Origin: Nannocystales bacterium
Lineage (GTDB): Bacteria; Myxococcota_A; Polyangia; Nannocystales; Nannocystaceae
Assembly: GCA_050633305.1 (NCBI GenBank)
Contig: JBOEGF010000007.1
Span: forward strand, 192,001 to 256,000
DNA length: 64,000 nt
Direction of reading: 5' to 3'
How positions within the stretch are numbered: the stretch's first letter is position 1; every line of letters begins with the position of its first letter. Of the stretch, positions 25,569 to 45,344 are shown one piece after another. Both the position numbers and the translations under genes were made by a program. The notes beneath the pieces were generated by a model. The model was given only the letters and a program-made list of their open reading frames with translations. It did no database searches and had not been told where the DNA came from.

Positions 25569-26723
25569 TTACTGGAACGTGCCGCTGCCGAAGTCGGCTC
25601 CGACCGGAACACACCACACGCTCACACCCCCGAGGTCGTCGAGCGTGAAGCCTTCAGGGAGCGTCAGCGTCAGGACTTCGCTGTTGTAGGGAAGGTCCCG
25701 GACGAGGTTCTCGCTCATGCTGAAGCCGTCGTCATACATCCCCTCGAAGCCGCCGTAGATCTGAGCGTCGATGCCCTGGCCGTCGAAGTTGAAGTCCCGG
25801 ATCTCGATGGTGCAGTTGTCGATGATCTCGGCGGTGCCACCGACGTCGTGGAAGAACATCTGCAGCTCGGCGGTCTGGCCGACCTTGGGGTGGGTGGCGG
25901 CACAGCCCGAAGGGTCGACGGGATCCACGGGATCGTCGGGGTCCATCGGGTCGTCGGGGTCGGTCGGGTCGTCGGGGTCGGTCGGGTCGTCGGGCTCCAC
26001 TGGGTCGGGGTCGACCTGGTTGGGGTCGTAGTCCCGGGAGAGGTACGCAACGATGTCGAGGAGTTCGTCCTCGCTCAGACGATCGGCGGCCCAGAACGGC
26101 ATGACGCCCCCCGTGAGTCCCTCGTAGATCTGGCTGCCGGGGAGGCCACTGGTACGAACGCGGCGGGCGACATACGCGGGGTCCAGCACCCCGGAGGCGA
26201 CCGAGATGGCTTGCTGGCTGCCAACGCCGTCTTGCCCGTGGCACTCGGCACAGCTGGCGTTGAACATCGCCCGCCCTGCGTCGGGGTCTCCGCCGGAGGG
26301 GGCTGTTGGAGGTGCTGCGATCTCGAAGGTTATCTCGTCTTCGGCGCCGCTGCCGGACTCCACAAAGGCCCGCAACGAAATCATCCGTGGGTCATCCGCG
26401 TCCCAGGGGTCGGCGGTCATCCACTCCGACAGGCAGGAGTTCGCGGCATCTTCAAAAGAATCGAGTTGCCCGTTCTTGAAGGTGTCTCGACTCGTGGCGC
26501 CGCCGAGTGGATGCCCGACCCGCCGCAGGCCCTCGGCATCGTCCATGGCGTGACACGTGGCGCACGTGAAGGTGTTTCCGCCCTCGACGGTCTGCTCGTA
26601 GAGCGCTTGACCTTCCGCGACCAACTCGGGGTCCGGGGCCGGCGCGCCCTCGCTGTCGTCACAACCGGTCAACAGGAGGGTGGCCATGGGGGCCGCGAGG
26701 ATCAGGGTCTTCAAATCCAGCAT
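25569..26723 (-). CDS. Lipoprotein: diheme c-type cytochrome (TsdA-like) plus DM13 domain
   Basis: Lipobox LTGC; CATCH and CAECH; PDDP repeat linker; DM13 HDVGG.A..FNFDG.G..VSVWC..GADFG. Confidence 0.85.
   Translation of the reverse strand: MLDLKTLILAAPMATLLLTGCDDSEGAPAPDPELVAEGQALYEQTVEGGNTFTCATCHAMDDAEGLRRVGHPLGGATSRDTFKNGQLDSFEDAANSCLSEWMTADPWDADDPRMISLRAFVESGSGAEDEITFEIAAPPTAPSGGDPDAGRAMFNASCAECHGQDGVGSQQAISVASGVLDPAYVARRVRTSGLPGSQIYEGLTGGVMPFWAADRLSEDELLDIVAYLSRDYDPNQVDPDPVEPDDPTDPDDPTDPDDPMDPDDPVDPVDPSGCAATHPKVGQTAELQMFFHDVGGTAEIIDNCTIEIRDFNFDGQGIDAQIYGGFEGMYDDGFSMSENLVRDLPYNSEVLTLTLPEGFTLDDLGGVSVWCVPVGADFGSGTFQ
25912..26012 (-). repeat. Coding tandem repeat (PDDPTD/PDDPMD linker)
   Basis: About 18-bp units such as gggtcgtcggggtcggtc, repeated. 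Confidence 0.8.
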
Positions 26724-26819
26724 CTGACTTGCTCTGCGCGACCCAACCCGGGCGCGAAGGGGCATACGCCCGCCTCGCCCGACGGTTACACAGTTGGGGT
26801 ACTCTCGGCGCGAATCGCG

Positions 26820-27680
26820 ATGACTCAGGTCGATCAGTTCGAGAGCGTGTTCAGAGCGGCCGCCAAACCCGTTTTCCATCCGTCCGCGGTGGAGCTGGAG
26901 CGGGTCCTGGTGGTCACAGATCTTCCTCCATCGGAGGCCAACGACTACGGCGGCGGGGTGGAGACGTTCCTGCGCCATGCGGCGAGCGCAGATGCGGCGA
27001 GCTACGACACCATCGCGGGGGTCGAAGCGCGGAGTACGGGCCAGCTGCTTCAGCTGGTCGAGGATGCAGCGCCCAGCTTGGTGTGCGCCTATCGCAACCT
27101 GTTCAGCGATGGCTGGCGGTGGCCGCACAGTCTTGGGGAAGCGTTGGACCTCCTGACGCAGACCACCGAGGCGCCCGTGCTCGTGTTGCCGCACCCCCAA
27201 GAGGGCAGTCAGGCGGAGCACGCGCTGCAAAACATCAACCAGGTCATGGCCGTGACCGACCACCTCGCTGGAGACGACCGCCTGGTGAACTGGGCGGCTG
27301 CGATGACGCAGGATGGCGGAACACTGACGTTGAGCCACATCGAAGACCAGAGCGTCTTCGACCGGTACATCAGCGTCATCGGGAAAATCTCGTCGATCGA
27401 CACCGACTCTGCGCGGGCTTCGATCGAGAAGCAGCTGCTCAAGGAGCCGGCCGACTACATCAACTCGGTTCGCGAAACCCTGAAGAAGGCGGGCACGCCC
27501 ATTACGGTGGAATCCGAGATTCGGCTCGGCAATCACCTCTCCGACTATCGGAGCTTGGTGGCCGAGCACGAGGTCGACATGCTCGTGCTCAACACCCGCG
27601 ATGACGAACAACTCGCCATGCATGGGCTCGCCTATCCCATCGCCGTCGAGATTCGAGACATTCCACTGCTGATGCTGTGA
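26820..27680 (+). CDS. Tandem universal stress protein (USP)-like protein
   Basis: Two units: VLVVTD...APVLVLP and VMAVTD...VDMLVL...IPLLML. Confidence 0.7.
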   Translation: MTQVDQFESVFRAAAKPVFHPSAVELERVLVVTDLPPSEANDYGGGVETFLRHAASADAASYDTIAGVEARSTGQLLQLVEDAAPSLVCAYRNLFSDGWRWPHSLGEALDLLTQTTEAPVLVLPHPQEGSQAEHALQNINQVMAVTDHLAGDDRLVNWAAAMTQDGGTLTLSHIEDQSVFDRYISVIGKISSIDTDSARASIEKQLLKEPADYINSVRETLKKAGTPITVESEIRLGNHLSDYRSLVAEHEVDMLVLNTRDDEQLAMHGLAYPIAVEIRDIPLLML

Positions 27681-32246: not shown

Positions 32247-32412
32247 CTCGAGCGCAGCGTAGCAGCCCCGGACGAAACCTGACACGGCCAGCGCTTAGGA
32301 TCTTCCGTCTGTGGAGCCCTGGGCGCGTCCCGGTGTGGCGCCCTTCGGGTGCCGGAGTGTCATCGAGCACGGGGCCCGGCTGTGTCGCGGTCGTCTTGAT
32401 ACCGTGCAGCCG

Positions 32413-33912
32413 ATGAGTTCGTTGCCGATCACCACCCGCCATGGCAAAGCGCTGTCTGCCTCCGGGCGCCGCCCGCCCGATGCTCCGGTGTGGATCGACG
32501 AGATCGACAATCCCTACCTGCACGGGTTGTTCGCACCGATTCAGACCGAGTTGCAGACCGACCAACTCACGGTCGTCGAAGGCGAGCTTCCCCGGGACCT
32601 CCGCGGTGGATATTTCCGCAACGGCCCCAACGCAGCACGTGCGCCCAAGAATCGCTACCACTGGTTCGACGGCGACGGAATGGTGCATGGGATCTGGTTC
32701 GAGGACGGCAAGGCCCGCTATGCGAATCGTTATGTGGGCACGGCGGGGCTTCAGTTGGAAGCCGAGCGCGACACGACGATCTGGCCCGGCGTCCTGGGGC
32801 CCTTCGACTTCTCTGCGCCGTTGGGGCCGCTCAAAGACACGGCGAACACCGACCTCATCGAAGTGAACGGACGCCTGCTGGCGCTTTGGTACGAGTCGGG
32901 AAAACCCTACGTGCTCGATCCCAACACGCTGGAGCCTCAGGGGATCGAGGACTTCGGCGGGCGCCTCACGTTTCCGTTGTCGGCACACTCCAAGGTGGAC
33001 CCCAACAGCGGGGACTTCATCTTCTTCAGCTACGGCGACCGGCCACCTTACATGCGCTACGGCGTGCTCACGGCGCAGGGCCAGCTGCATCACGTCGACA
33101 TCGACCTTCCGGGTCCTCGTCGGCCGCACGACATCGGGGTGACGCCTCGCTTCTCCATTCTCCACGACTTCCCGGTGTTCTACGATCCCGAGCTCTTTGC
33201 GAAGAAAGGGAAGCGAGTCCCGCTGTTTCATCCCGAGGTCCCGACTCGCTTCGGCGTCATTCCGCGGTTGGGCACCAACGAGGACGTGCGCTGGTTCGAG
33301 TGCGAACCCTGCTACATGCTGCACGTCGTCAACTGTTGGGAAGAGGGCGACTGGGTCGTGATGGTCGGATGCCGGACCGCGGATCCGTCGCTTCACCCCG
33401 ACCCCGAGGACGGCCGGATCGCCGCCATGCTCAGCGGCCTCAAGCTGCAGGCCAACCTCTATCGCTGGCGGTTGAACATGAAGTCCGGCGCCGTCGAGGA
33501 GGGGCCGCTTGATGACTCGAACGCCGAGTTTCCGATGATCCGTCCCTCGGTCATGGGGGAGGCGAATCGGTGGGCATACCTGCAACACATCCCCCACGAA
33601 GTGCCTGCGACGTTTGAGGGCCTGATGAAGTTCGATGTGCGATCCGGCGCCTCGACGGCGTTCCAGTACGGACCGGGCGTGTTCGGAAGCGAGAGCCCGT
33701 TTGCCCCCCGGCCCGATGGTGACGAAGAAGACGACGGTTACCTGGTCACGTTCGTCACCGACACCGCCGACTGGAGCAGCGCATGTCTGGTCTTCGATGC
33801 CCGTGACATCGCCCAAGGCCCACTCGCCAAGGTCGCGCTTCCGCAGCGGGTTCCGGCTGGTTTTCACGCGATCTGGATCGACGGAGCGGTTCTCGATGGC
33901 GCTGCGTCCTGA
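32413..33912 (+). CDS. Carotenoid/stilbene cleavage oxygenase family protein
   Basis: NPYL.G.FAP, RNGPN, HWFDGDGMVH; four Fe-His (SAH, PHD, LHV.N, GFH). Confidence 0.93.
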   Translation: MSSLPITTRHGKALSASGRRPPDAPVWIDEIDNPYLHGLFAPIQTELQTDQLTVVEGELPRDLRGGYFRNGPNAARAPKNRYHWFDGDGMVHGIWFEDGKARYANRYVGTAGLQLEAERDTTIWPGVLGPFDFSAPLGPLKDTANTDLIEVNGRLLALWYESGKPYVLDPNTLEPQGIEDFGGRLTFPLSAHSKVDPNSGDFIFFSYGDRPPYMRYGVLTAQGQLHHVDIDLPGPRRPHDIGVTPRFSILHDFPVFYDPELFAKKGKRVPLFHPEVPTRFGVIPRLGTNEDVRWFECEPCYMLHVVNCWEEGDWVVMVGCRTADPSLHPDPEDGRIAAMLSGLKLQANLYRWRLNMKSGAVEEGPLDDSNAEFPMIRPSVMGEANRWAYLQHIPHEVPATFEGLMKFDVRSGASTAFQYGPGVFGSESPFAPRPDGDEEDDGYLVTFVTDTADWSSACLVFDARDIAQGPLAKVALPQRVPAGFHAIWIDGAVLDGAAS

Positions 33913-34333
33913 AGACCTCGTCGGCACCTGGGAACTCGAGGTGTTCGAGGTCGAGCTCGCGGACGGAAGGCGGGTGTTCCCGATGGGAGCCGACGCCCGC
34001 GGGAGCCTGATGTACACCGAGGATGGAAGGATGTCGGCGACGCTCAGCGCTGCCGAGCGCGCGCCGCTTTCGGTGCCACGCCTCGAGGCGTTCGCGCGTG
34101 CGCCCTCGTCGGAGAAAGCCGCTGCGTTCGACTCGTATCTCGCGTACGTGGGCCGATACACGGTCGAGCCCGGCGCTGTTGTGCATCATGTCGAACTCGC
34201 GTCGGTGCCCAACATCGTCGGCGCGAACCAGCGGCGAGACGCGACCCTCGAAGCAGACCACCTCACCCTGCGGTACGCCGTCGATGGCGACCGAGGCTCT
34301 CGACACAACACTTTGCGATGGCGACGCTCGTAG
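33896..34333 (+). CDS. Lipocalin-like domain protein
   Basis: LVGTW.L, G.LMYT.DG.MSA, YLAY.G.Y, L.WRR; overlaps both neighbours. Confidence 0.85.
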   Translation: MALRPEDLVGTWELEVFEVELADGRRVFPMGADARGSLMYTEDGRMSATLSAAERAPLSVPRLEAFARAPSSEKAAAFDSYLAYVGRYTVEPGAVVHHVELASVPNIVGANQRRDATLEADHLTLRYAVDGDRGSRHNTLRWRRS

Positions 34334-36012
34334 ACTCCTGGTTCTCTTCTCACGCGCCGCGCCTGGAGCGAGCGGTGCAGGCCTGCGCAACGCGAGAAGC
34401 GTGGACGCCGTTCGTCGAGTCCCCCTCAGGGAAGCTGCACCCCCCGGGAGCCAAGGACGCGGGGCTCGAGTGGTTCCAGTCCGTGCTGGGCCGCTCGTTC
34501 CCGCTCTCGATGCCAGGGGAAGTCGGACGCACCGGGGCCGAGGTTTCGCCCTACAGCAGAGAGTCTCTGGGCATCGATTACCCCAAGGTCGAGGTCGACC
34601 CGTTGATGGCCGCAGCCCAGGCGGCCATCCCGACGTGGCGCAAGGCATCGATGCAGACCCGGGTTGGCGTGTGCATGGAGATCCTGGACCGGCTCGCTCA
34701 GGACGTGTTCGCGAACGCGTTTGCCACGATGCACACCGCAGGGCAGGGGTTCATGATGAGCTTCGCGGGAAGCGGCGCAAACTCGCTCGATCGGGGCCTC
34801 GAGGGGCTCGCCTTCGCGTACAAGGCCATGAAGGACATCCCCACCGAAGCGGTGTTCGAACGTCGCTTTGGCGGGGAGGTTGTTCGACTGCGCAAGCGCT
34901 ACCGCCTGATGCCGCGTGGGGTGGCGGTCGTGGTGTCATGCGGTTCCTACCCCGCCTGGAATGCGTACCCAGCCTTGTTCGCAAACCTGGCCACGGCCAA
35001 TCCCGTCGTGCTCAAGCCGCATCCGGAGTGCATTCTCCCGATGGCCCGCGCGGTACAGATCGCTCGCGAGACCATCCTCGAGGCTGGGTTCGACCCGAAC
35101 CTGGTCACGTTGGCGGCCGATACCCGGGCTGAGCCGGTCACGAAAGAGCTGCTGAAGCACCCACAGACCGCGATCATCGACTTCACGGGGAGTCAGCGGT
35201 TTGGGGCCTGGATCGAGGCGAACTGCGGGCATGCGGACGTGTACACAGAGACTGCAGGGTGCAATGCGGTTGTGGTCGAGTCTGCCCGGGCACTTGAGCC
35301 CGTGCTCGATGCGATCGCGCAGAGTCTGTGTCTGTTCTCCGCACAGATGTGCACCGCGGCGCAGAACATCTTCGTGCCGGCCCTGGGCGTGCGCGTGGGT
35401 GATTCTCGGGTGCTTCCGGACGCATTTGCGGCAGGACTGGTGGAGGCCATCGACCGAATGCTGGCAGACCCGAAACACGCGGCGGGCATCTGCGGTGCGC
35501 TGCAAACCGATACGATCGAGGCGACGCTTCACCGGCTTGGTTCGCATCCCGGCGTGGTCCGTCCGAGTAAGCCGTACGCGCATCCGCAGCATCCCAATGC
35601 TCGCACCGCGACTCCGTTGGTGCTTCGCACGTCGGCGCCAGACTCTATCTACCAGCAGGAACACTTCGGTCCGGTTGGGTTCGTGATCGAAGCGCACGAC
35701 CGCGAGCATGCGCTCGCACAGGCGGCGCACGACGCAGGGCATTTCGGCTCGATCGCCAACTACGCCTACTCGGTCGACCCCGCGTTCCTCGAGGCCATCG
35801 AAGACGCGTTCGCGGACCACGGCGCCTCGGTCGGAATCAACCTGCTCGGGCAGCGGCCGATCAACTTCACGGCAGCGTTCAGCGACTATCACGTCACCGG
35901 GCTCAACCCCGCCGGAAACGCCTGCCTCACCGACCTTGCGTTCGTCACCCGACGCTTCCGCATCGTGCAATCCAAGACTGAAGAACCATGCCTCGCATCG
36001 ACGACATCCTGA
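34318..36012 (+). CDS. PaaN-like aldehyde dehydrogenase
   Basis: E.SPY..LGI.YP, HT.GQ.FMM, DRGLEG.A, DFTGS, ETAG.N, QMCT, FSDYHVTG.NPAGNA. Confidence 0.87.
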   Translation: MATLVDSWFSSHAPRLERAVQACATREAWTPFVESPSGKLHPPGAKDAGLEWFQSVLGRSFPLSMPGEVGRTGAEVSPYSRESLGIDYPKVEVDPLMAAAQAAIPTWRKASMQTRVGVCMEILDRLAQDVFANAFATMHTAGQGFMMSFAGSGANSLDRGLEGLAFAYKAMKDIPTEAVFERRFGGEVVRLRKRYRLMPRGVAVVVSCGSYPAWNAYPALFANLATANPVVLKPHPECILPMARAVQIARETILEAGFDPNLVTLAADTRAEPVTKELLKHPQTAIIDFTGSQRFGAWIEANCGHADVYTETAGCNAVVVESARALEPVLDAIAQSLCLFSAQMCTAAQNIFVPALGVRVGDSRVLPDAFAAGLVEAIDRMLADPKHAAGICGALQTDTIEATLHRLGSHPGVVRPSKPYAHPQHPNARTATPLVLRTSAPDSIYQQEHFGPVGFVIEAHDREHALAQAAHDAGHFGSIANYAYSVDPAFLEAIEDAFADHGASVGINLLGQRPINFTAAFSDYHVTGLNPAGNACLTDLAFVTRRFRIVQSKTEEPCLASTTS

Positions 36013-37172
36013 TCCTGGACGGAGCCCGCACCGCGGTGGGGGCGTTCCTCGGTGGCCTCAGCCGTGTCACCCCAACCTCGCTCGGCGTGGCTGCGGCCAC
36101 CGGTGCGCTACGCAGGGCCGGCATTGAACCGGAACGTATCGACGCGACGATCTTCGGCAACGTGCTCCAGTCGGCCAAAGACTCGGTGTACCTCGCACGC
36201 CACGTGGGTTTGCAGGCGGGTGTCCCCGAAGACCGCCCCGCGTTGGTCGTAAACCGGGCGTGCGCCTCGGGCCTCGAGGCCGTGATTCAAGGCGCGAAGG
36301 CGATGGCCGTGGGCGAGGCAGGCTTCATCCTCGCGGGCGGGGCCGAGAACATGAGTCTGACGCCGTACGCGATGCGTGGGGTCCGTCAGGGCTGGAAGAT
36401 GATCAAGTCGGACGTCGACGACATGCTGTTCAGCGCGTTGTTCGATCCGATGGCCGGGTGCTCGATTGGAGAGACCGTGGAGCATCTGGCGGCGGAGCTG
36501 GGCATCACGAGACAGGAGGCGGACGCGATGGCGGTGGAAGGGCAGCGCCGCGCCGCAGCGGCCGTGGCCGGGGGCGTCTACGCGGAGGAGATCGTACCCG
36601 TGACCGCAGGAAGTCGCCGAAAGCCCGTGGTGGTCGAAGTCGATGAGGCGCCCCGTCCGGAGTCCACGATGGAGATGCTCGCGGGACTGCCCGGGCTCTA
36701 CGAAGGCGGCATCAACACGGCTGGTAACTCCTGCGGACTCAACGACGCAGCCGCCGCCGTGGTCATGGCGACCGCAGACGCAGCAAAGGCAGCCGGTGCA
36801 ACGGCACTGGGGCGAGTGGTCAGCTGGGCCAGCGTGGGCGTGGCCCCCAAATCGATGGGGCTGGGTCCGATCGAGGCGAGCCGGAAGGCGCTGGGTGATG
36901 CGGGGCTTTCGGTGAGCGACCTCGACGTCATCGAGCTCAACGACTCCTTCGCAGTGCAGTCCGTCGCGGTTCAACGGGCGCTGGAGTTGGACCCGAGCAA
37001 GGTGAATCCGAACGGCGGGGCGGTCGCGCTGGGGCACCCGATGGCGGCGACCGGGACGCGTCTGGTGCTCTCGGCGCTGTACGAACTCCGCCGGAGGCAG
37101 GGACGGTACGCGTTGGCCACGGTGTGTGTGGGCGGCGGCCAAGGGACAGCCATCGTGCTCGAGCGGGTCTGA
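35988..37172 (+). CDS. Thiolase (acetyl-CoA C-acyltransferase)
   Basis: NRACASG, GGAENMS, GHP..ATG, CVGGGQG. Confidence 0.93.
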   Translation: MPRIDDILILDGARTAVGAFLGGLSRVTPTSLGVAAATGALRRAGIEPERIDATIFGNVLQSAKDSVYLARHVGLQAGVPEDRPALVVNRACASGLEAVIQGAKAMAVGEAGFILAGGAENMSLTPYAMRGVRQGWKMIKSDVDDMLFSALFDPMAGCSIGETVEHLAAELGITRQEADAMAVEGQRRAAAAVAGGVYAEEIVPVTAGSRRKPVVVEVDEAPRPESTMEMLAGLPGLYEGGINTAGNSCGLNDAAAAVVMATADAAKAAGATALGRVVSWASVGVAPKSMGLGPIEASRKALGDAGLSVSDLDVIELNDSFAVQSVAVQRALELDPSKVNPNGGAVALGHPMAATGTRLVLSALYELRRRQGRYALATVCVGGGQGTAIVLERV

Positions 37173-37229
37173 GCGCCGTGACTGGCACGGACCGGTTGTG
37201 TCCGGACGGGGAACGGGCAACCCTCGGGC

Positions 37230-38021
37230 GTGACCACTGCCGACCGTCCCCGAATTCGGACCGAAGTCCACGGCGCCGTCTTGCTGCTCGTCCTCGACCG
37301 CGCGGAAAAACGAAACGCGTTCGACCTGCGGATGCTTCGCGAGCTGGCGGAAGCGCTGACCCGCTACGAGACGGACGAGGCGCTTCGTTGTGCAGTGTTG
37401 GCGGCAGATGGCGAGCACTTCACGGCGGGTTTGGATCTCGCGGAGGTCGGGCCCGCGGTCGCTGATGGTGCGTCGTTGTTCCCCGATGGCGCAGTCGACC
37501 CGCTCAACATGCACCCACCACTGCGTCGCAAGCCTCTGATCATGGCGGTCCAGGGCTGGTGTCTGACGATCGGCATCGAGCTGTTGCTCGCCGCCGACAT
37601 TCGACTGGCCGCGACGGGGACGCGCCTCGGGCAGATCGAGATCAATCGCGGCATCTTTCCGTTTGGTGGTGCCACGGTCCGGCTTCCCCAGATCGCGGGC
37701 TGGGGGAATGCGATGCGTTGGCTCCTCACCGGAGATGTCTTCGACGCCCAGGAGGCGCTGCGTATTGGGCTCGTGCAGGAGGTGATTCCGGAGGCTTCGC
37801 TGCGAGCACGGGCGCTGGAACTCGCGGCGACGGTTGCCAAGCGGGCACCGTTGGGCGTGCAGGCGACGCTTGCCTCCGCGGCCCAGGCCGAGCTGCAAGG
37901 CCACCAAGCGGCGATCGACGGGTTACTCCCCACCGCCATGAAGCTGATGGCGAGTGAGGACGCCGCCGAGGGGCTTCGCTCGTTCGTCGAACGTCGAGAC
38001 GGCGTGTTCACCGGCCGCTGA
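37230..38021 (+). CDS. Enoyl-CoA hydratase/crotonase family protein
   Basis: FTAGLDL, KP.I.AVQG.C, EL.LA.DI, EINRGIFPFGG. Confidence 0.92.
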   Translation: MTTADRPRIRTEVHGAVLLLVLDRAEKRNAFDLRMLRELAEALTRYETDEALRCAVLAADGEHFTAGLDLAEVGPAVADGASLFPDGAVDPLNMHPPLRRKPLIMAVQGWCLTIGIELLLAADIRLAATGTRLGQIEINRGIFPFGGATVRLPQIAGWGNAMRWLLTGDVFDAQEALRIGLVQEVIPEASLRARALELAATVAKRAPLGVQATLASAAQAELQGHQAAIDGLLPTAMKLMASEDAAEGLRSFVERRDGVFTGR

Positions 38022-38048
38022 ACTCGCGGAGATTCGGACGAGGAGGCG

Positions 38049-39860
38049 GTGTGGGCGGTCGATGCCGTCGTACACTTCGACCGTCCGATGTCCCTCGAGA
38101 CCGAACCCTTCCGCACGCTTCTTGAAGACCTCGCGTTCGTCGTGTTCGACGTGCTGAAGCAGCCGGACCGGGCGGAGCATGAGCCGCTGATCGAGGCGGC
38201 GATTCGCTTGGCCGCCGAACGGTTTGCCACACATGCGGCCAAGTCCGATGCCCACGAACCAACGTGGGATGGCGAGCACTTGCACCTCATCCCAGAGATT
38301 CAGCAAGCGCTCCGCGAGTTCATCGACGGAGGATTCCTCGCCGCTCCATTCCCGGAGTCCGATGGCGGGTTGGGGCTCCCGTACACGGTCTATCAATCGA
38401 TGATGGCCGCGTTCCAAGCCGCAAACCCGGGAACCTGCGCCTACCCGTTTCTCACCTCGGCGGCGGCCAACCTGTTGCGGGTGTTTGGAAGCGAGTCGCA
38501 GAAGGGGCGGTTCATGCGACCGATGATCGACGGGCGTTTCTTCGGGACGATGTGCTTGTCCGAGCCCCACGCCGGTTCCTCGCTGGCGGACATCCGTTGC
38601 CGAGCGCTCCCGCAGCCCGACGGCACGTTCCACCTCGAGGGAGACAAAATGTGGATCTCGGCCGGCGAGCACGGTCTCTGCGAGACGATCGTGCACTTGG
38701 TCCTTGCACGGCTGCCCGATGCGCCCGACGGGGTCCGCGGCATCTCGTTGTTCCTGGTGCCGCGCAATCAGGTCGCGGAGGACGGGACGGTGGGCCCACG
38801 GAACGGCGTGTCGCTGATCGGTCTCAACCACAAGATGGGCTACCGCGGGGCGGTCAACACGGCGCTGGCGTTCGGCGCCGACGCGCCGGCCGTTGGGGAG
38901 TTGGTCGGTGCTCCGAACCAGGGCCTTGCCGCGATGTTCCACATGATGAACGAAGCCCGTATCGGTGTGGGGCTAGGGGCGGCGATGATCGGCTACGCCG
39001 GCTACCGCGTCTCGGTGGCCTACGCTCGTGATCGAGTTCAGGGGCGTCACCCCGATGAGAAGGGCGGGAAGGCGGTCCCCATCGTGGAGCACGCCGATGT
39101 CCGGCGCATGCTGTTGACCCAGAAGGTCTACGCCGAGGGGGGGATGGCGTTGACCCTGTACTGCGCGCGTCTCGTCGACGATGCGCAGGCGGCATCCGAC
39201 GACGAATCGAAACGGCGATGCGCCGACCTCCTCGGGATGCTCACCCCGATTGCGAAAGCCTGGCCGTCCGAGCATGGACCGATCGCCAACGACCTGGCCA
39301 TTCAAGTCTTCGGGGGCAGTGGCTACACGCGCGACTACCCGGTTGAGCGCTACTACCGAGACAACCGTCTCAACCCAATTCATGAGGGCACCAACGGAGT
39401 GCAGGGGTTGGACCTGCTTGGGCGAAAGGTCATGCAGGACCGGGGGCGGGCCTTCGGTCGACTCTGCTCGAAGGTCCAATCGGCGATCGAGCGGGCGGGA
39501 GGGTTCGACGAACTCGCGGACGACCGAGGGGCGCTGGCCCACGCGTTGGGCCGTGTCGTCGAGACCACCGGGATCCTGGGCACGGCCGCTGCGGCTGGGA
39601 AGGTTCGGTTGGCGCTGGCGAACGCGACCGAGTATCTGCACATGCTCGGGCACGTGGTCGTGGGTTGGATGTGGCTCGAGCAGGCGATGGCGGCGATTAC
39701 GGGGCGTGACGCAGGGACCACCGACCCAGACTTCGCTGCCGGCAAGATCCACGCATCGCGGTTCTTCTGCCGCTACGAGCTTCCCAGGGTCGACCGACGG
39801 GCCACGCTCTTGAACAGGCTCGACGACACCACGATGACGATGCCGGATGCCGGGTTCTAA
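38049..39860 (+). CDS. Acyl-CoA dehydrogenase
   Basis: GTMCLSEPHAGSSL, G.KMWISAGEH, MFHMMNEAR, QVFGG.GY, IHEGTNG; alternative start 38088. Confidence 0.93.
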   Translation: MWAVDAVVHFDRPMSLETEPFRTLLEDLAFVVFDVLKQPDRAEHEPLIEAAIRLAAERFATHAAKSDAHEPTWDGEHLHLIPEIQQALREFIDGGFLAAPFPESDGGLGLPYTVYQSMMAAFQAANPGTCAYPFLTSAAANLLRVFGSESQKGRFMRPMIDGRFFGTMCLSEPHAGSSLADIRCRALPQPDGTFHLEGDKMWISAGEHGLCETIVHLVLARLPDAPDGVRGISLFLVPRNQVAEDGTVGPRNGVSLIGLNHKMGYRGAVNTALAFGADAPAVGELVGAPNQGLAAMFHMMNEARIGVGLGAAMIGYAGYRVSVAYARDRVQGRHPDEKGGKAVPIVEHADVRRMLLTQKVYAEGGMALTLYCARLVDDAQAASDDESKRRCADLLGMLTPIAKAWPSEHGPIANDLAIQVFGGSGYTRDYPVERYYRDNRLNPIHEGTNGVQGLDLLGRKVMQDRGRAFGRLCSKVQSAIERAGGFDELADDRGALAHALGRVVETTGILGTAAAAGKVRLALANATEYLHMLGHVVVGWMWLEQAMAAITGRDAGTTDPDFAAGKIHASRFFCRYELPRVDRRATLLNRLDDTTMTMPDAGF

Positions 39861-43497: not shown

Positions 43498-44475
43498 TCA
43501 AGCCATGTTGGCCAGGGACGCCTTGCCATGTCGGAGCTCGCCGATGTCGGGTCGGTCCGCCCGCTCCCCGATGCAGGCCCGAAACACATCGAGGTAGCTG
43601 GGCGCGCATGCGTCCGGATGCTCTTCGTAGAAACCCCGCGCCTCGAGAAGCGCGTGCGCCCTGGGCAAGTTGTAGCCGGGCACGCTGGGGAAGAAGTGGT
43701 GCTCGCAGTGGTAGTTCACGTAGTTGGGCGCGATCAACGTGCGCGCGAGCCAACCTGCCCTTGTCGTGCGTGCGTGCAGCCGGGGTTCCTTACTCAGAAG
43801 GTCGGGAACGTTTCCGTGTTCACCCATGACACGAAGCCGGAGGCACAGGGGCACCACGAAGATGAACCCGGCCCACCAGGCGGCGTAGGCCCAGGGCATG
43901 CCGAGCAGGTACAGGCCACCGAACATGGCCGTGTGCACCACAACGGAGGTCAGCCGGCCATGGCGGACCGTCATCGCGATCAGATAGAGACCATCGCGGA
44001 CCCCAGTTCGTCCGCTGAGGTCGCGTACCAATTTGCGTCGCATGCTCGCCGGCTTCACCGGGTAGGCGTGGACGAAGGGCAGGTCGGGGTCCTCGAGTGT
44101 GCCCGCGTGCCGATGGTGCGCGAGGTGGCCGTTGCGGTAGGTGTCGAAGTCGATCAGGGTCGGCCCCGAGAACAGCCATCGGCCGAGCACGCGGTTGAGC
44201 GCAGGGGTCCGGAACAGCGCGTTGTGGGCGGCGTCGTGGATCAGGATGCCGAGCCCCACGTATCGCCCGGCGAGGATGACCGCGGAGACGATGAACGTGA
44301 CCGGGTGCGGCCACAAACCGAGCAACGCGAAGGCGCCCGCAATGACGCCGAAGTTCGCCAGGACCTCAACGCTCGCCCGGAGGTCGGAGGTCTCCGTGAG
44401 CGAGGCGGTCTCCTCTCGGGAGAGGAAGTCCCGGACGCGGGCTCGACTATGAATATCTCGAACACCCATGAACAT
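43498..44475 (-). CDS. Membrane fatty-acid desaturase family protein
   Basis: His boxes HDAAH, HLAHHRH, HCEHH.FP.VP.YNLP. Confidence 0.9.
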   Translation of the reverse strand: MFMGVRDIHSRARVRDFLSREETASLTETSDLRASVEVLANFGVIAGAFALLGLWPHPVTFIVSAVILAGRYVGLGILIHDAAHNALFRTPALNRVLGRWLFSGPTLIDFDTYRNGHLAHHRHAGTLEDPDLPFVHAYPVKPASMRRKLVRDLSGRTGVRDGLYLIAMTVRHGRLTSVVVHTAMFGGLYLLGMPWAYAAWWAGFIFVVPLCLRLRVMGEHGNVPDLLSKEPRLHARTTRAGWLARTLIAPNYVNYHCEHHFFPSVPGYNLPRAHALLEARGFYEEHPDACAPSYLDVFRACIGERADRPDIGELRHGKASLANMA

Positions 44476-44477
44476 AA

Positions 44478-44506
44478 AGTGTCGATCGGTGTTACTGTAG
44501 TGTCAA
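44478..44506 (-). promoter_or_regulatory. Putative sigma70 promoter of the desaturase
   Basis: TTGACA-17 bp-GACACT; imperfect palindrome TGTTAC-TGTA-GTGTCA overlaps the -35. Confidence 0.4.
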
Positions 44507-44519
44507 GGCAGCTGAGCCC

Positions 44520-45344
44520 ATGCCCAAGCCGAAGGACGCATTTTCGGCCCGGCTGGCGAGTCCAGTGACCGCCAAGCGGGCGATTCTCGCGGCGTTGACT
44601 GCAACGCAGCGTGCGCTTAGTACCGCTCAACTTCGACTCTGCGGAGCGCTGTTCGACGTGGAAGGGCCCGCGGTCCGGGTGGCCCTGGGTCGGCTTGTGG
44701 ACAAAGGAGACGTCGTTTCGCAAGGCGAGGGTGTCTACAAGATCGGGCCCAAGGGGGAGGCTATCGCGCAGGCGATCCGGCGCTGGCGCGACCTCCCGCG
44801 ACTCGACAGATCGTGGAACGGCGAGTGGATCGCGATTCACACCGCGCACCTGGGCCGCAGTCGTCGGCCGCAGCTGAGACGTCGAGAACGGGCGTTGTCC
44901 CTGTTTGGGTTTGCGAGTGTGACGGATGGGCTGTGGACACGCCCCGACAACCTTCGCATCGAGCCCGCCGCACTGGCCTCGCGGTTGTTCGAACTCGGGC
45001 TCGAACCGGAGGCAATCCTCGTCGTCGGTGCTCGGTTCATCGCAGAGCCGGCGCAGGGGCTTGGGTGCCTATGGGACAAGGAGACGATCGAGGCTGGCTA
45101 CGTGGCTGCGGAGTCCGCGATGGCGAGTTGTCTCGAGGGGTTCGAGCGGGCGAGTCTCAAGGAGCGGGCGCGAGGCACCGCGACGATCGGGACCGCGGTG
45201 ATCGGGATGCTCAGCTTCGATCCTCTCTTGCCGCGCGAACTCTTGGACGCGGACCTGCGCGGCGCGGTTCATCGCCGCATGTTGGAGTTCGATCGCATCG
45301 GGAAACGGGCGCTCGTAGCGTACTGGCAGGACCACGGCTGCTGA
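44520..45344 (+). CDS. PaaX-family transcriptional regulator
   Basis: wHTH RVALGRL, W.G.W, L.L.GF....GLW.RPDN, DPLLP.EL. Confidence 0.85.
   Translation: MPKPKDAFSARLASPVTAKRAILAALTATQRALSTAQLRLCGALFDVEGPAVRVALGRLVDKGDVVSQGEGVYKIGPKGEAIAQAIRRWRDLPRLDRSWNGEWIAIHTAHLGRSRRPQLRRRERALSLFGFASVTDGLWTRPDNLRIEPAALASRLFELGLEPEAILVVGARFIAEPAQGLGCLWDKETIEAGYVAAESAMASCLEGFERASLKERARGTATIGTAVIGMLSFDPLLPRELLDADLRGAVHRRMLEFDRIGKRALVAYWQDHGC

Follow-up and report, generated by a model that had tools for sequence, protein, structure and literature searches.

Which reaction is carried out by an enzyme of the carotenoid oxygenase family whose gene is followed by overlapping genes for a lipocalin, a PaaN-like aldehyde dehydrogenase (ALDH) and a thiolase? 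Here we address this question for a locus within a 64,000-nt stretch of DNA (hereafter, the window; contig JBOEGF010000007.1, positions 192,001-256,000) from a Nannocystales bacterium, whose 11-Mb genome is 92% complete. An earlier note on this DNA had described six co-oriented genes, the first four of them overlapping, as a catabolic route in which carotenoids, apocarotenoids or stilbenes would be cleaved, the aldehyde oxidized, possibly with CoA acylation, and the product passed on to beta-oxidation. The arrangement was confirmed, since all six open reading frames (ORFs) are intact and co-oriented on the plus strand between positions 32413 and 39860; genes 1-4 overlap in turn by 17, 16, and 25 nt, and gaps of 57 and 27 nt separate the thiolase from the crotonase gene and the latter from the acyl-CoA dehydrogenase gene. 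We find that a catabolic oxygenase/ALDH/thiolase module is real, conserved, and undescribed, whereas stilbenes as substrates, CoA acylation, and the six-gene extent did not stand. For its function we tentatively favor an oxygen-dependent bypass of a block in beta-oxidation.

Relatives of the oxygenase were collected from genome contigs, and the best 80 of 201 were kept as loci, in which neighbors within up to 10 kb were scored by tblastn with identity thresholds of our own choosing; many of these loci are short, and closely related ones are not independent. An HDCF-type thiolase (PRK06289) occurs near the oxygenase in 38 of the 80 loci, PaaN in 31, a second thiolase type in 29, a CoA ligase in 22, a flavoenzyme of the nitronate monooxygenase family in 21, a double-HxlR regulator in 20, the lipocalin and the window's thiolase type in 13 each, and, in proteobacterial versions, a CoA transferase in 5. 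Any of the three thiolase types is found in 53/80 loci, and in 35/48 of those whose flanks reach 8 kb or more on each side; the thiolase type changes across the oxygenase clade and the link to a thiolase stays. In the wider clade (39-55% identity), the thiolase that is kept is of another type, and the smallest versions (L017-L019 and L022) comprise the oxygenase and thiolase only. Unlike the loci with the HDCF thiolase, which belong to the same oxygenase clade, the window has a classic thiolase with an NDSF loop and, in addition, the lipocalin and an ALDH of the PaaN clade.

Among 20 loci with at least 60% oxygenase identity, 17 have at least 2.5 kb downstream; PaaN is present in 12 of these, the window's thiolase in 13, and at least one of the two in 16, and in the single exception (L021) the lipocalin-PaaN-thiolase genes lie elsewhere in the genome. 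A reverse search of metagenomes with PaaN returned 17 loci, 15 at 52-88% identity and two at 31%. The lipocalin gene stands directly upstream of PaaN in 14 of the 15, the oxygenase was seen in 8, and one (L153) has neither; L148 and L149 have no oxygenase within the 1.6-2 kb upstream. The two 31% loci contain none of the module genes. PaaN also adjoins this oxygenase in marine Gammaproteobacteria. The core unit is therefore the oxygenase-lipocalin-PaaN-thiolase set, which recurs in other genera, as the earlier note had asked to be checked, with the link seen in two distant lineages; because of this recurrence, the gene order is more than chance.

The module ALDH is uncoupled from phenylacetate catabolism. 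The absence of the phenylacetyl-CoA epoxidase, claimed at first for the window, holds for the whole host genome, where PaaA and PaaC were not found and BoxB gives the sole match to their Pfam family; for paaK, no separate search was made. In a set of 72 genomes from the same order, the oxygenase (E <= 1e-60) is present in 25 and its close form (at least 77% identity) in 7; PaaN occurs in exactly the same 7 genomes, all of one genus, and PaaA in none of the 72, with the control positive in 3/14. The PRK06289 thiolase is found in 9 of the 72; each of the 9 belongs to the 25 oxygenase-bearing genomes, and in 6 the two genes are adjacent. A further search covered 50 of 74 additional genomes: every one in which PaaN lies near the oxygenase (26) and 24 in which it does not. 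In the first group, all distant genomes, PaaN is single in each and located by the oxygenase; 19 have no PaaA hit, and 7 have PaaA on another contig.

The oxygenase is predicted to be an iron dioxygenase of an uncharacterized clade of the carotenoid oxygenase family, with C=C cleavage as its expected activity. It scores above the PF03055 cut-off of the RPE65 superfamily, is modeled as a propeller (predicted local distance difference test, pLDDT, 92.5), and retains the four iron-binding histidines that had been reported as intact: H192, H239, H304, and H485 are invariant in 34/34 homologs and align with the histidines of plant CCD1 and Synechocystis apocarotenoid oxygenase (ACO). Like CCD1 (PDB 9luz, 9m3e, 9m6z; about 34% identity) and ACO (2biw; 27%), it combines the seven-bladed propeller and four histidines with a second-sphere Glu, and its Trp159 and Glu161 align with Trp149 and Glu150 of ACO. 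Unlike either, it is encoded with genes of CoA metabolism, the loop holding the CCD1/ACO hydrophobic segment is shorter (by alignment, as are the other residue comparisons with these two), and Arg237, two residues before an iron ligand, occupies the position of ACO Phe236 and of a Met in CCD1. This Arg, in the motif RRPHD, is conserved in 120/120 top homologs and 20/20 close loci. The position presumably lines the substrate cavity, and an anionic substrate would fit because the Arg is kept there in close homologs. At E <= 1e-50, 4,120 of 8,000 scored proteins match the oxygenase, a number that includes more distant family members; an ESM Atlas search returned only the same Pfam families. The host encodes a second RPE65-family protein (L089:8889-10628, contig C42 of the host, G000) with 27% identity to the first, which forms a long branch and whose gene lies beside two-component kinase genes.

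The ALDH exceeds the TIGR02288 PaaN_2 cut-off only narrowly, and its catalytic Glu and Cys are present as claimed, E311 and C345 being invariant in 10/10 aligned PaaNs. Glu311 we take to be the general base of hydrolytic ALDHs. A CoA-acylating methylmalonate-semialdehyde dehydrogenase lacks a Glu in that stretch (the BLAST gap placement being loose), and the ALDH scores 35 against a cut-off of 448.5 on the corresponding model TIGR01722. The earlier suggestion of CoA acylation is not supported: judged from the sequence it is unlikely, because the ALDH keeps the hydrolytic Glu311, and related clusters bring their own CoA ligase (22/80 loci). The oxygenase-linked PaaNs form a clade apart from the PaaNs of paa clusters, of which seven, taken from plasmid records, were included in the trees; support for the clade is 100 in FastTree (38 selected rows) and SH-aLRT 100 in a quick IQ-TREE run (39 rows, two of them paa rows). 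The window's ALDH is 41-46% identical to most paa PaaNs.

The remaining proteins of the locus divide between the core and its surroundings. The lipocalin has no obvious signal peptide and is modeled as a beta-barrel (pLDDT 96) whose best fold match is the uncharacterized lipocalin 4gzv (Z 11.9, root-mean-square deviation 3.6, 104 aligned residues); other fold matches are uncharacterized or generic barrels, and a PDB sequence search gave no hit. It is likely a ligand carrier or an accessory isomerase, and the predicted complex with the ALDH scored 0.00 against a mark of 0.32. The thiolase has intact catalytic residues (C92, H350, C380) and indeed NDSF in place of NEAF; among 18 orthologs, 15 have NDSF and 3 NDAF. 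With this loop and a C-terminal Cys, and without HDCF, it is not a type 2 SCP2-thiolase, and the host genome gave no hit to PRK06289. The acyl-CoA dehydrogenase resembles general FadE/DmdC enzymes in family and closest structures. The crotonase belongs to a family (PRK06563 type) found in 39/72 genomes of the order, of which 33 lack PaaN, and even close relatives have it displaced from the core or truncated; it is an accessory protein, probably of generic beta-oxidation, and both proteins look like generic neighbors of the core. A pathway of all six genes was rejected, as the crotonase is near the oxygenase in 4/80 loci and the dehydrogenase in 3/80, and the crotonase is widespread without PaaN.

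We propose, with somewhat less than even confidence, that the core genes encode an oxygen-dependent bypass of blocked beta-oxidation, in which the oxygenase would act on an acyl-CoA that is beta-branched or carries a ring, cleaving it at C3=C4; substrate, cleavage site, and order of steps are inferred. The thiolase is the steadiest partner of the oxygenase and its substrate is a 3-oxoacyl-CoA, and cleavage at C3=C4 is proposed since it links the thiolase with the ALDH. Dioxygenolysis would yield a 3-oxoacyl-CoA, to be split by the thiolase, and an aldehyde, to be converted to the acid by the PaaN-like ALDH. Beta-oxidation is known to be blocked by a tertiary beta-carbon, as in cyclohexylacetate (PMC10710301). 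For a ring, with cyclohex-1-enylacetyl-CoA as the model, both functions would arise in a single product, 3-oxosuberyl-CoA semialdehyde, which would be oxidized to 3-oxosuberyl-CoA and split into adipyl-CoA and acetyl-CoA. For a 3-methyl isoprenoid chain, the products would be acetoacetyl-CoA and a free lipophilic aldehyde, perhaps carried by the lipocalin, whose place next to the ALDH would suit such a product. Preparing or finishing the chain would fall to the crotonase and acyl-CoA dehydrogenase, and the CoA ester would be supplied by a ligase or by beta-oxidation encoded elsewhere. The proteobacterial versions with a CoA ligase, flavoenzyme or CoA transferase were counted in favor of a reaction at the CoA level. 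1-Cyclohexenylacetic acid is reportedly an intermediate in a Cupriavidus strain.

The closest parallel is the lower phenylacetate pathway (PaaZ/PaaN, then PaaJ), in which a TIGR02288 ALDH is likewise followed by a thiolase; the logic that we propose as shared is semialdehyde oxidation and then thiolysis, and 3-oxosuberyl-CoA semialdehyde would be the saturated twin of the PaaZ substrate. Unlike that pathway, the module lacks the PaaABCE epoxidase, has an RPE65-family oxygenase and a lipocalin in place of the ring-opening genes, and uses an ALDH of a separate clade. It is doubtful, though conceivable, that this is the first carotenoid oxygenase clade to act on CoA thioesters, in which a cofactor-free dioxygenase would replace the whole PaaABCE/PaaG/hydrolase front end by a beta,gamma cut in beta-blocked ring or isoprenoid acyl-CoAs.

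Several observations weigh against cleavage of an acyl-CoA. To our knowledge, the characterized substrates of the oxygenase family are conjugated or aryl alkenes (PMC5133782), and the literature searched offered no case of such an oxygenase acting on a CoA ester. The nearest solved homolog by sequence is CCD1, a carotenoid 9,10-dioxygenase (E 1e-81). At the position of Arg237, the 60 more remote loci have Leu (53), Ser (6) or Ala (1), and PaaN is still present in many of these loci. Of the 80 loci, 27, some of them short, show no member of the three thiolase types, and in proteobacterial clusters the second thiolase, of classic fold, has no C-terminal Cys in either of the two aligned copies. 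The host has no ortholog of the module's CoA ligase (best 28%). The link to PaaN is not strict: among the 24 genomes without PaaN near the oxygenase, five have it elsewhere, four of those together with PaaA, and in G107, G108, and G111 PaaN lies away from the oxygenase and PaaA is present. Of these off-locus PaaNs, three have the second, SCP2-like thiolase of the module as a neighbor and group with the oxygenase-linked PaaNs; the fourth is just outside the fetched flank. The oxygenase-linked PaaNs also differ from paa PaaNs at several motifs, and the substrate analogy may not carry. Finally, three alphaproteobacterial paa clusters (L128, L158, L162) encode both the bifunctional PaaZ and PaaN; PaaN may not simply equal the ALDH half of PaaZ, and its real reaction is uncertain because these clusters hold both.

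Carotenoids, named as substrates in the earlier note, remain the main rival and rank behind C3=C4 cleavage of an acyl-CoA. The first cut would be made in a free carotenoid or apocarotenoid of prey or host origin, the lipocalin would carry the aldehyde, the ALDH would oxidize it, an unlinked ligase would activate the acid, and the thiolase would act on methyl-branched intermediates. CCD1 is the best solved homolog by both sequence and fold, but template-modeling scores for CCD1, lignostilbene dioxygenase (LSD) and ACO are alike (0.79-0.83), and the fold search does not separate them. The ACO-like Trp/Glu pair and the lipocalin fold of the partner agree with carotenoid cleavage, as do TonB receptors and esterases in marine clusters, three hits of the phytoene/squalene synthase family in the host, and the carotenoid-cleaving oxygenases of other myxobacteria (PMC5133782). 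On the other hand, the Arg at the Phe236 position, the shorter loop, a score of 273 against 675 on the model of 8'-apo-carotenoid 13,14-cleaving dioxygenases (NF052295), and the lack of any carotenoid synthesis gene among recurring annotated neighbors count against it, and on balance we consider it rather unlikely. Still less probable in our view is that a conjugated polyenoic acid (an aryl polyene or flexirubin, an apocarotenoic acid or a conjugated fatty acid) is cut as its CoA ester further along the chain, after which the ALDH would oxidize the omega-aldehyde on the CoA fragment, to be finished by a reductase and the thiolase. This would retain the conjugated substrate known for the family, and it fits the Arg at the cavity position, an ALDH of CoA-semialdehyde type, and neighbors such as the ligase, a flavoreductase-like gene, a tannase or alpha/beta hydrolase, and an occasional Rieske demethylase; it leaves unexplained why the special thiolase, not the reductase, is kept in the smallest versions, and the host block has no reductase.

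Two further explanations are very improbable. Cleavage of a stilbene or phenylpropene, the other substrate class of the earlier note, would follow the example of the lignostilbene dioxygenases LsdA and NOV1, which share the fold, the iron site, and an ALDH partner with the window's oxygenase. Two proteins passing NF053778 served as lignostilbene controls; where they have Tyr (YRNP) and Lys (LKE), the window's oxygenase has Val128 and Trp159/Tyr160, and it falls in a clade separate from these two true LSDs. NOV1 binds the 4-hydroxyl of its substrate by Tyr101 and Lys134 (PMC6382310). With this pair replaced, scores of 224/800 and 197/650 on the family models NF053778 and NF053780, and a thiolase for which an aromatic aldehyde product would have no use, a stilbene substrate is not supported. 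It is equally hard to credit that the genes are unrelated neighbors and that PaaN serves the phenylacetate or benzoyl-CoA (box) pathway. The ALDH does pass the PaaN_2 cut-off, and the host does carry a boxC-boxB pair (L088:8488-11622, contig C13 of G000), around which no boxA was recognized among 17 ORFs scanned. However, PaaA is absent from the 72 genomes of the order, and the link to the oxygenase is seen in two distant lineages and in the reverse search. PaaN as a missing BoxD was rejected: a different contig of the host encodes a BoxD-type ALDH (G000:C9:290142-291692), which scores 579 on PRK11903 against a cut-off of 444, where the module ALDH scores 41.

The features of the locus are collected in Table 1. 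The six genes have similar GC content at third codon positions (0.78-0.83), and co-transcription of the core genes is inferred from their overlaps. A TAnnnT hexamer stands 6-8 nt before the ATG in 10/15 upstream regions, as read by eye with no chance estimate, and suggests a leaderless transcript starting at the oxygenase gene; a full sigma-70 scan of the locus found no promoter, and a promoter/terminator scan gave nothing above shuffled sequences. A divergent carbonic anhydrase gene lies upstream of the block and a convergent gene for an extracytoplasmic function (ECF) sigma factor downstream.

Table 1. Features of the oxygenase locus in the window
Feature	Positions	Strand	Length	Remarks
Candidate -10 hexamer (TAnnnT)	32400..32405	+		7 nt before oxygenase ATG
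RPE65/PF03055 oxygenase, core	32413..33912	+	499 aa	426 bits, E 2.5e-127
Lipocalin_5 (PF13924), core in Myxococcota-type block	33896..34333	+	145 aa	119 bits
PaaN-like ALDH, core	34318..36012	+	564 aa	TIGR02288 PaaN_2, 587 bits vs cut-off 578.75
Thiolase with NDSF loop, core	35988..37172	+	394 aa	PF00108/PF02803, TIGR01930 over cut-off
PRK06563-type crotonase, accessory	37230..38021	+		375 vs cut-off 261; two catalytic-position Glu
FadE5/DmdC-size acyl-CoA dehydrogenase, accessory	38049..39860	+	600 aa	Start may be ATG at 38088

Elsewhere in the window, an ORF with cytochrome c domains and a C-terminal DM13 domain (25569-27623, minus strand) is kept together with a neighboring CitMHS-type transporter in close relatives. 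A gene of the fatty acid desaturase family, divergent from a 274-aa ORF without a Pfam hit, lies at 43498-45344, and the pair is conserved in L016.

Related loci offer further observations. Decay is seen in relatives, with PaaN in two pieces (L063:11466-13114), a partial thiolase and crotonase (L141:9834-10248), and a crotonase remnant after a pirin gene (L009:16355-16456). A TetR gene lies upstream in four loci, with no clear host ortholog (best 36%). In L017, L018, and L019, from three marine Gammaproteobacteria (one titled Ketobacteraceae), a palindrome TGTACA-N-TGTACA is found about 45-55 nt upstream of the oxygenase, between the TetR gene and the oxygenase-thiolase pair, and is a candidate operator. 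Cultured carriers of the related cluster are Pseudomaricurvus, Maricurvus, Parahaliea, Cupriavidus, and Sphingopyxis; plasmids of the last two hold a compact cassette of oxygenase, ligase, flavoenzyme, hydrolase, short-chain dehydrogenase/reductase (SDR), ALDH, and thiolase. On a Cupriavidus necator plasmid (L170:10001-16014), two oxygenases of the clade flank a CoA ligase, and genes for an HDCF-type thiolase and an SDR come next. Wider-clade oxygenases at L093:14206-22582 and L094:10119-15288 are flanked by several alpha/beta hydrolases and tripartite tricarboxylate binding proteins, a setting that suggests ester or amide intermediates after cleavage. In marine Gammaproteobacteria, a sub-block of PaaN, a second SCP2-like thiolase, a second CoA ligase, and a hotdog thioesterase adjoins the main oxygenase cluster (L041:3609-8582, L029, L033, L083, and in part L048). 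Upstream of the oxygenase-lipocalin-PaaN block, L011:6515-9147 and L037:5820-8438 carry a Rieske oxygenase and an IQCH-like ATP-grasp gene.

The literature searched, which left subscription journals and supplements outside its scope, holds no description of this gene set, in agreement with the earlier note, which knew of no pathway with this composition. The module is built from known families; what is new is the four-gene form with its dedicated PaaN clade and lipocalin, and the product class that it indicates. For a large oxygenase clade without a known substrate, the link to a PaaN-type ALDH and a thiolase gives a concrete product class, and a 'paaN' annotation, as found in many marine genomes, does not indicate the use of phenylacetate. 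If the proposed C3=C4 cleavage of acyl-CoA is true, carotenoid oxygenase chemistry extends to CoA esters, and it could explain bacterial use of beta-blocked ring acids or isoprenoid acids. Alongside alpha-oxidation and carboxylation, it would then represent a further, new way around the beta-branch block, common to predatory Myxococcota and marine lipid degraders.

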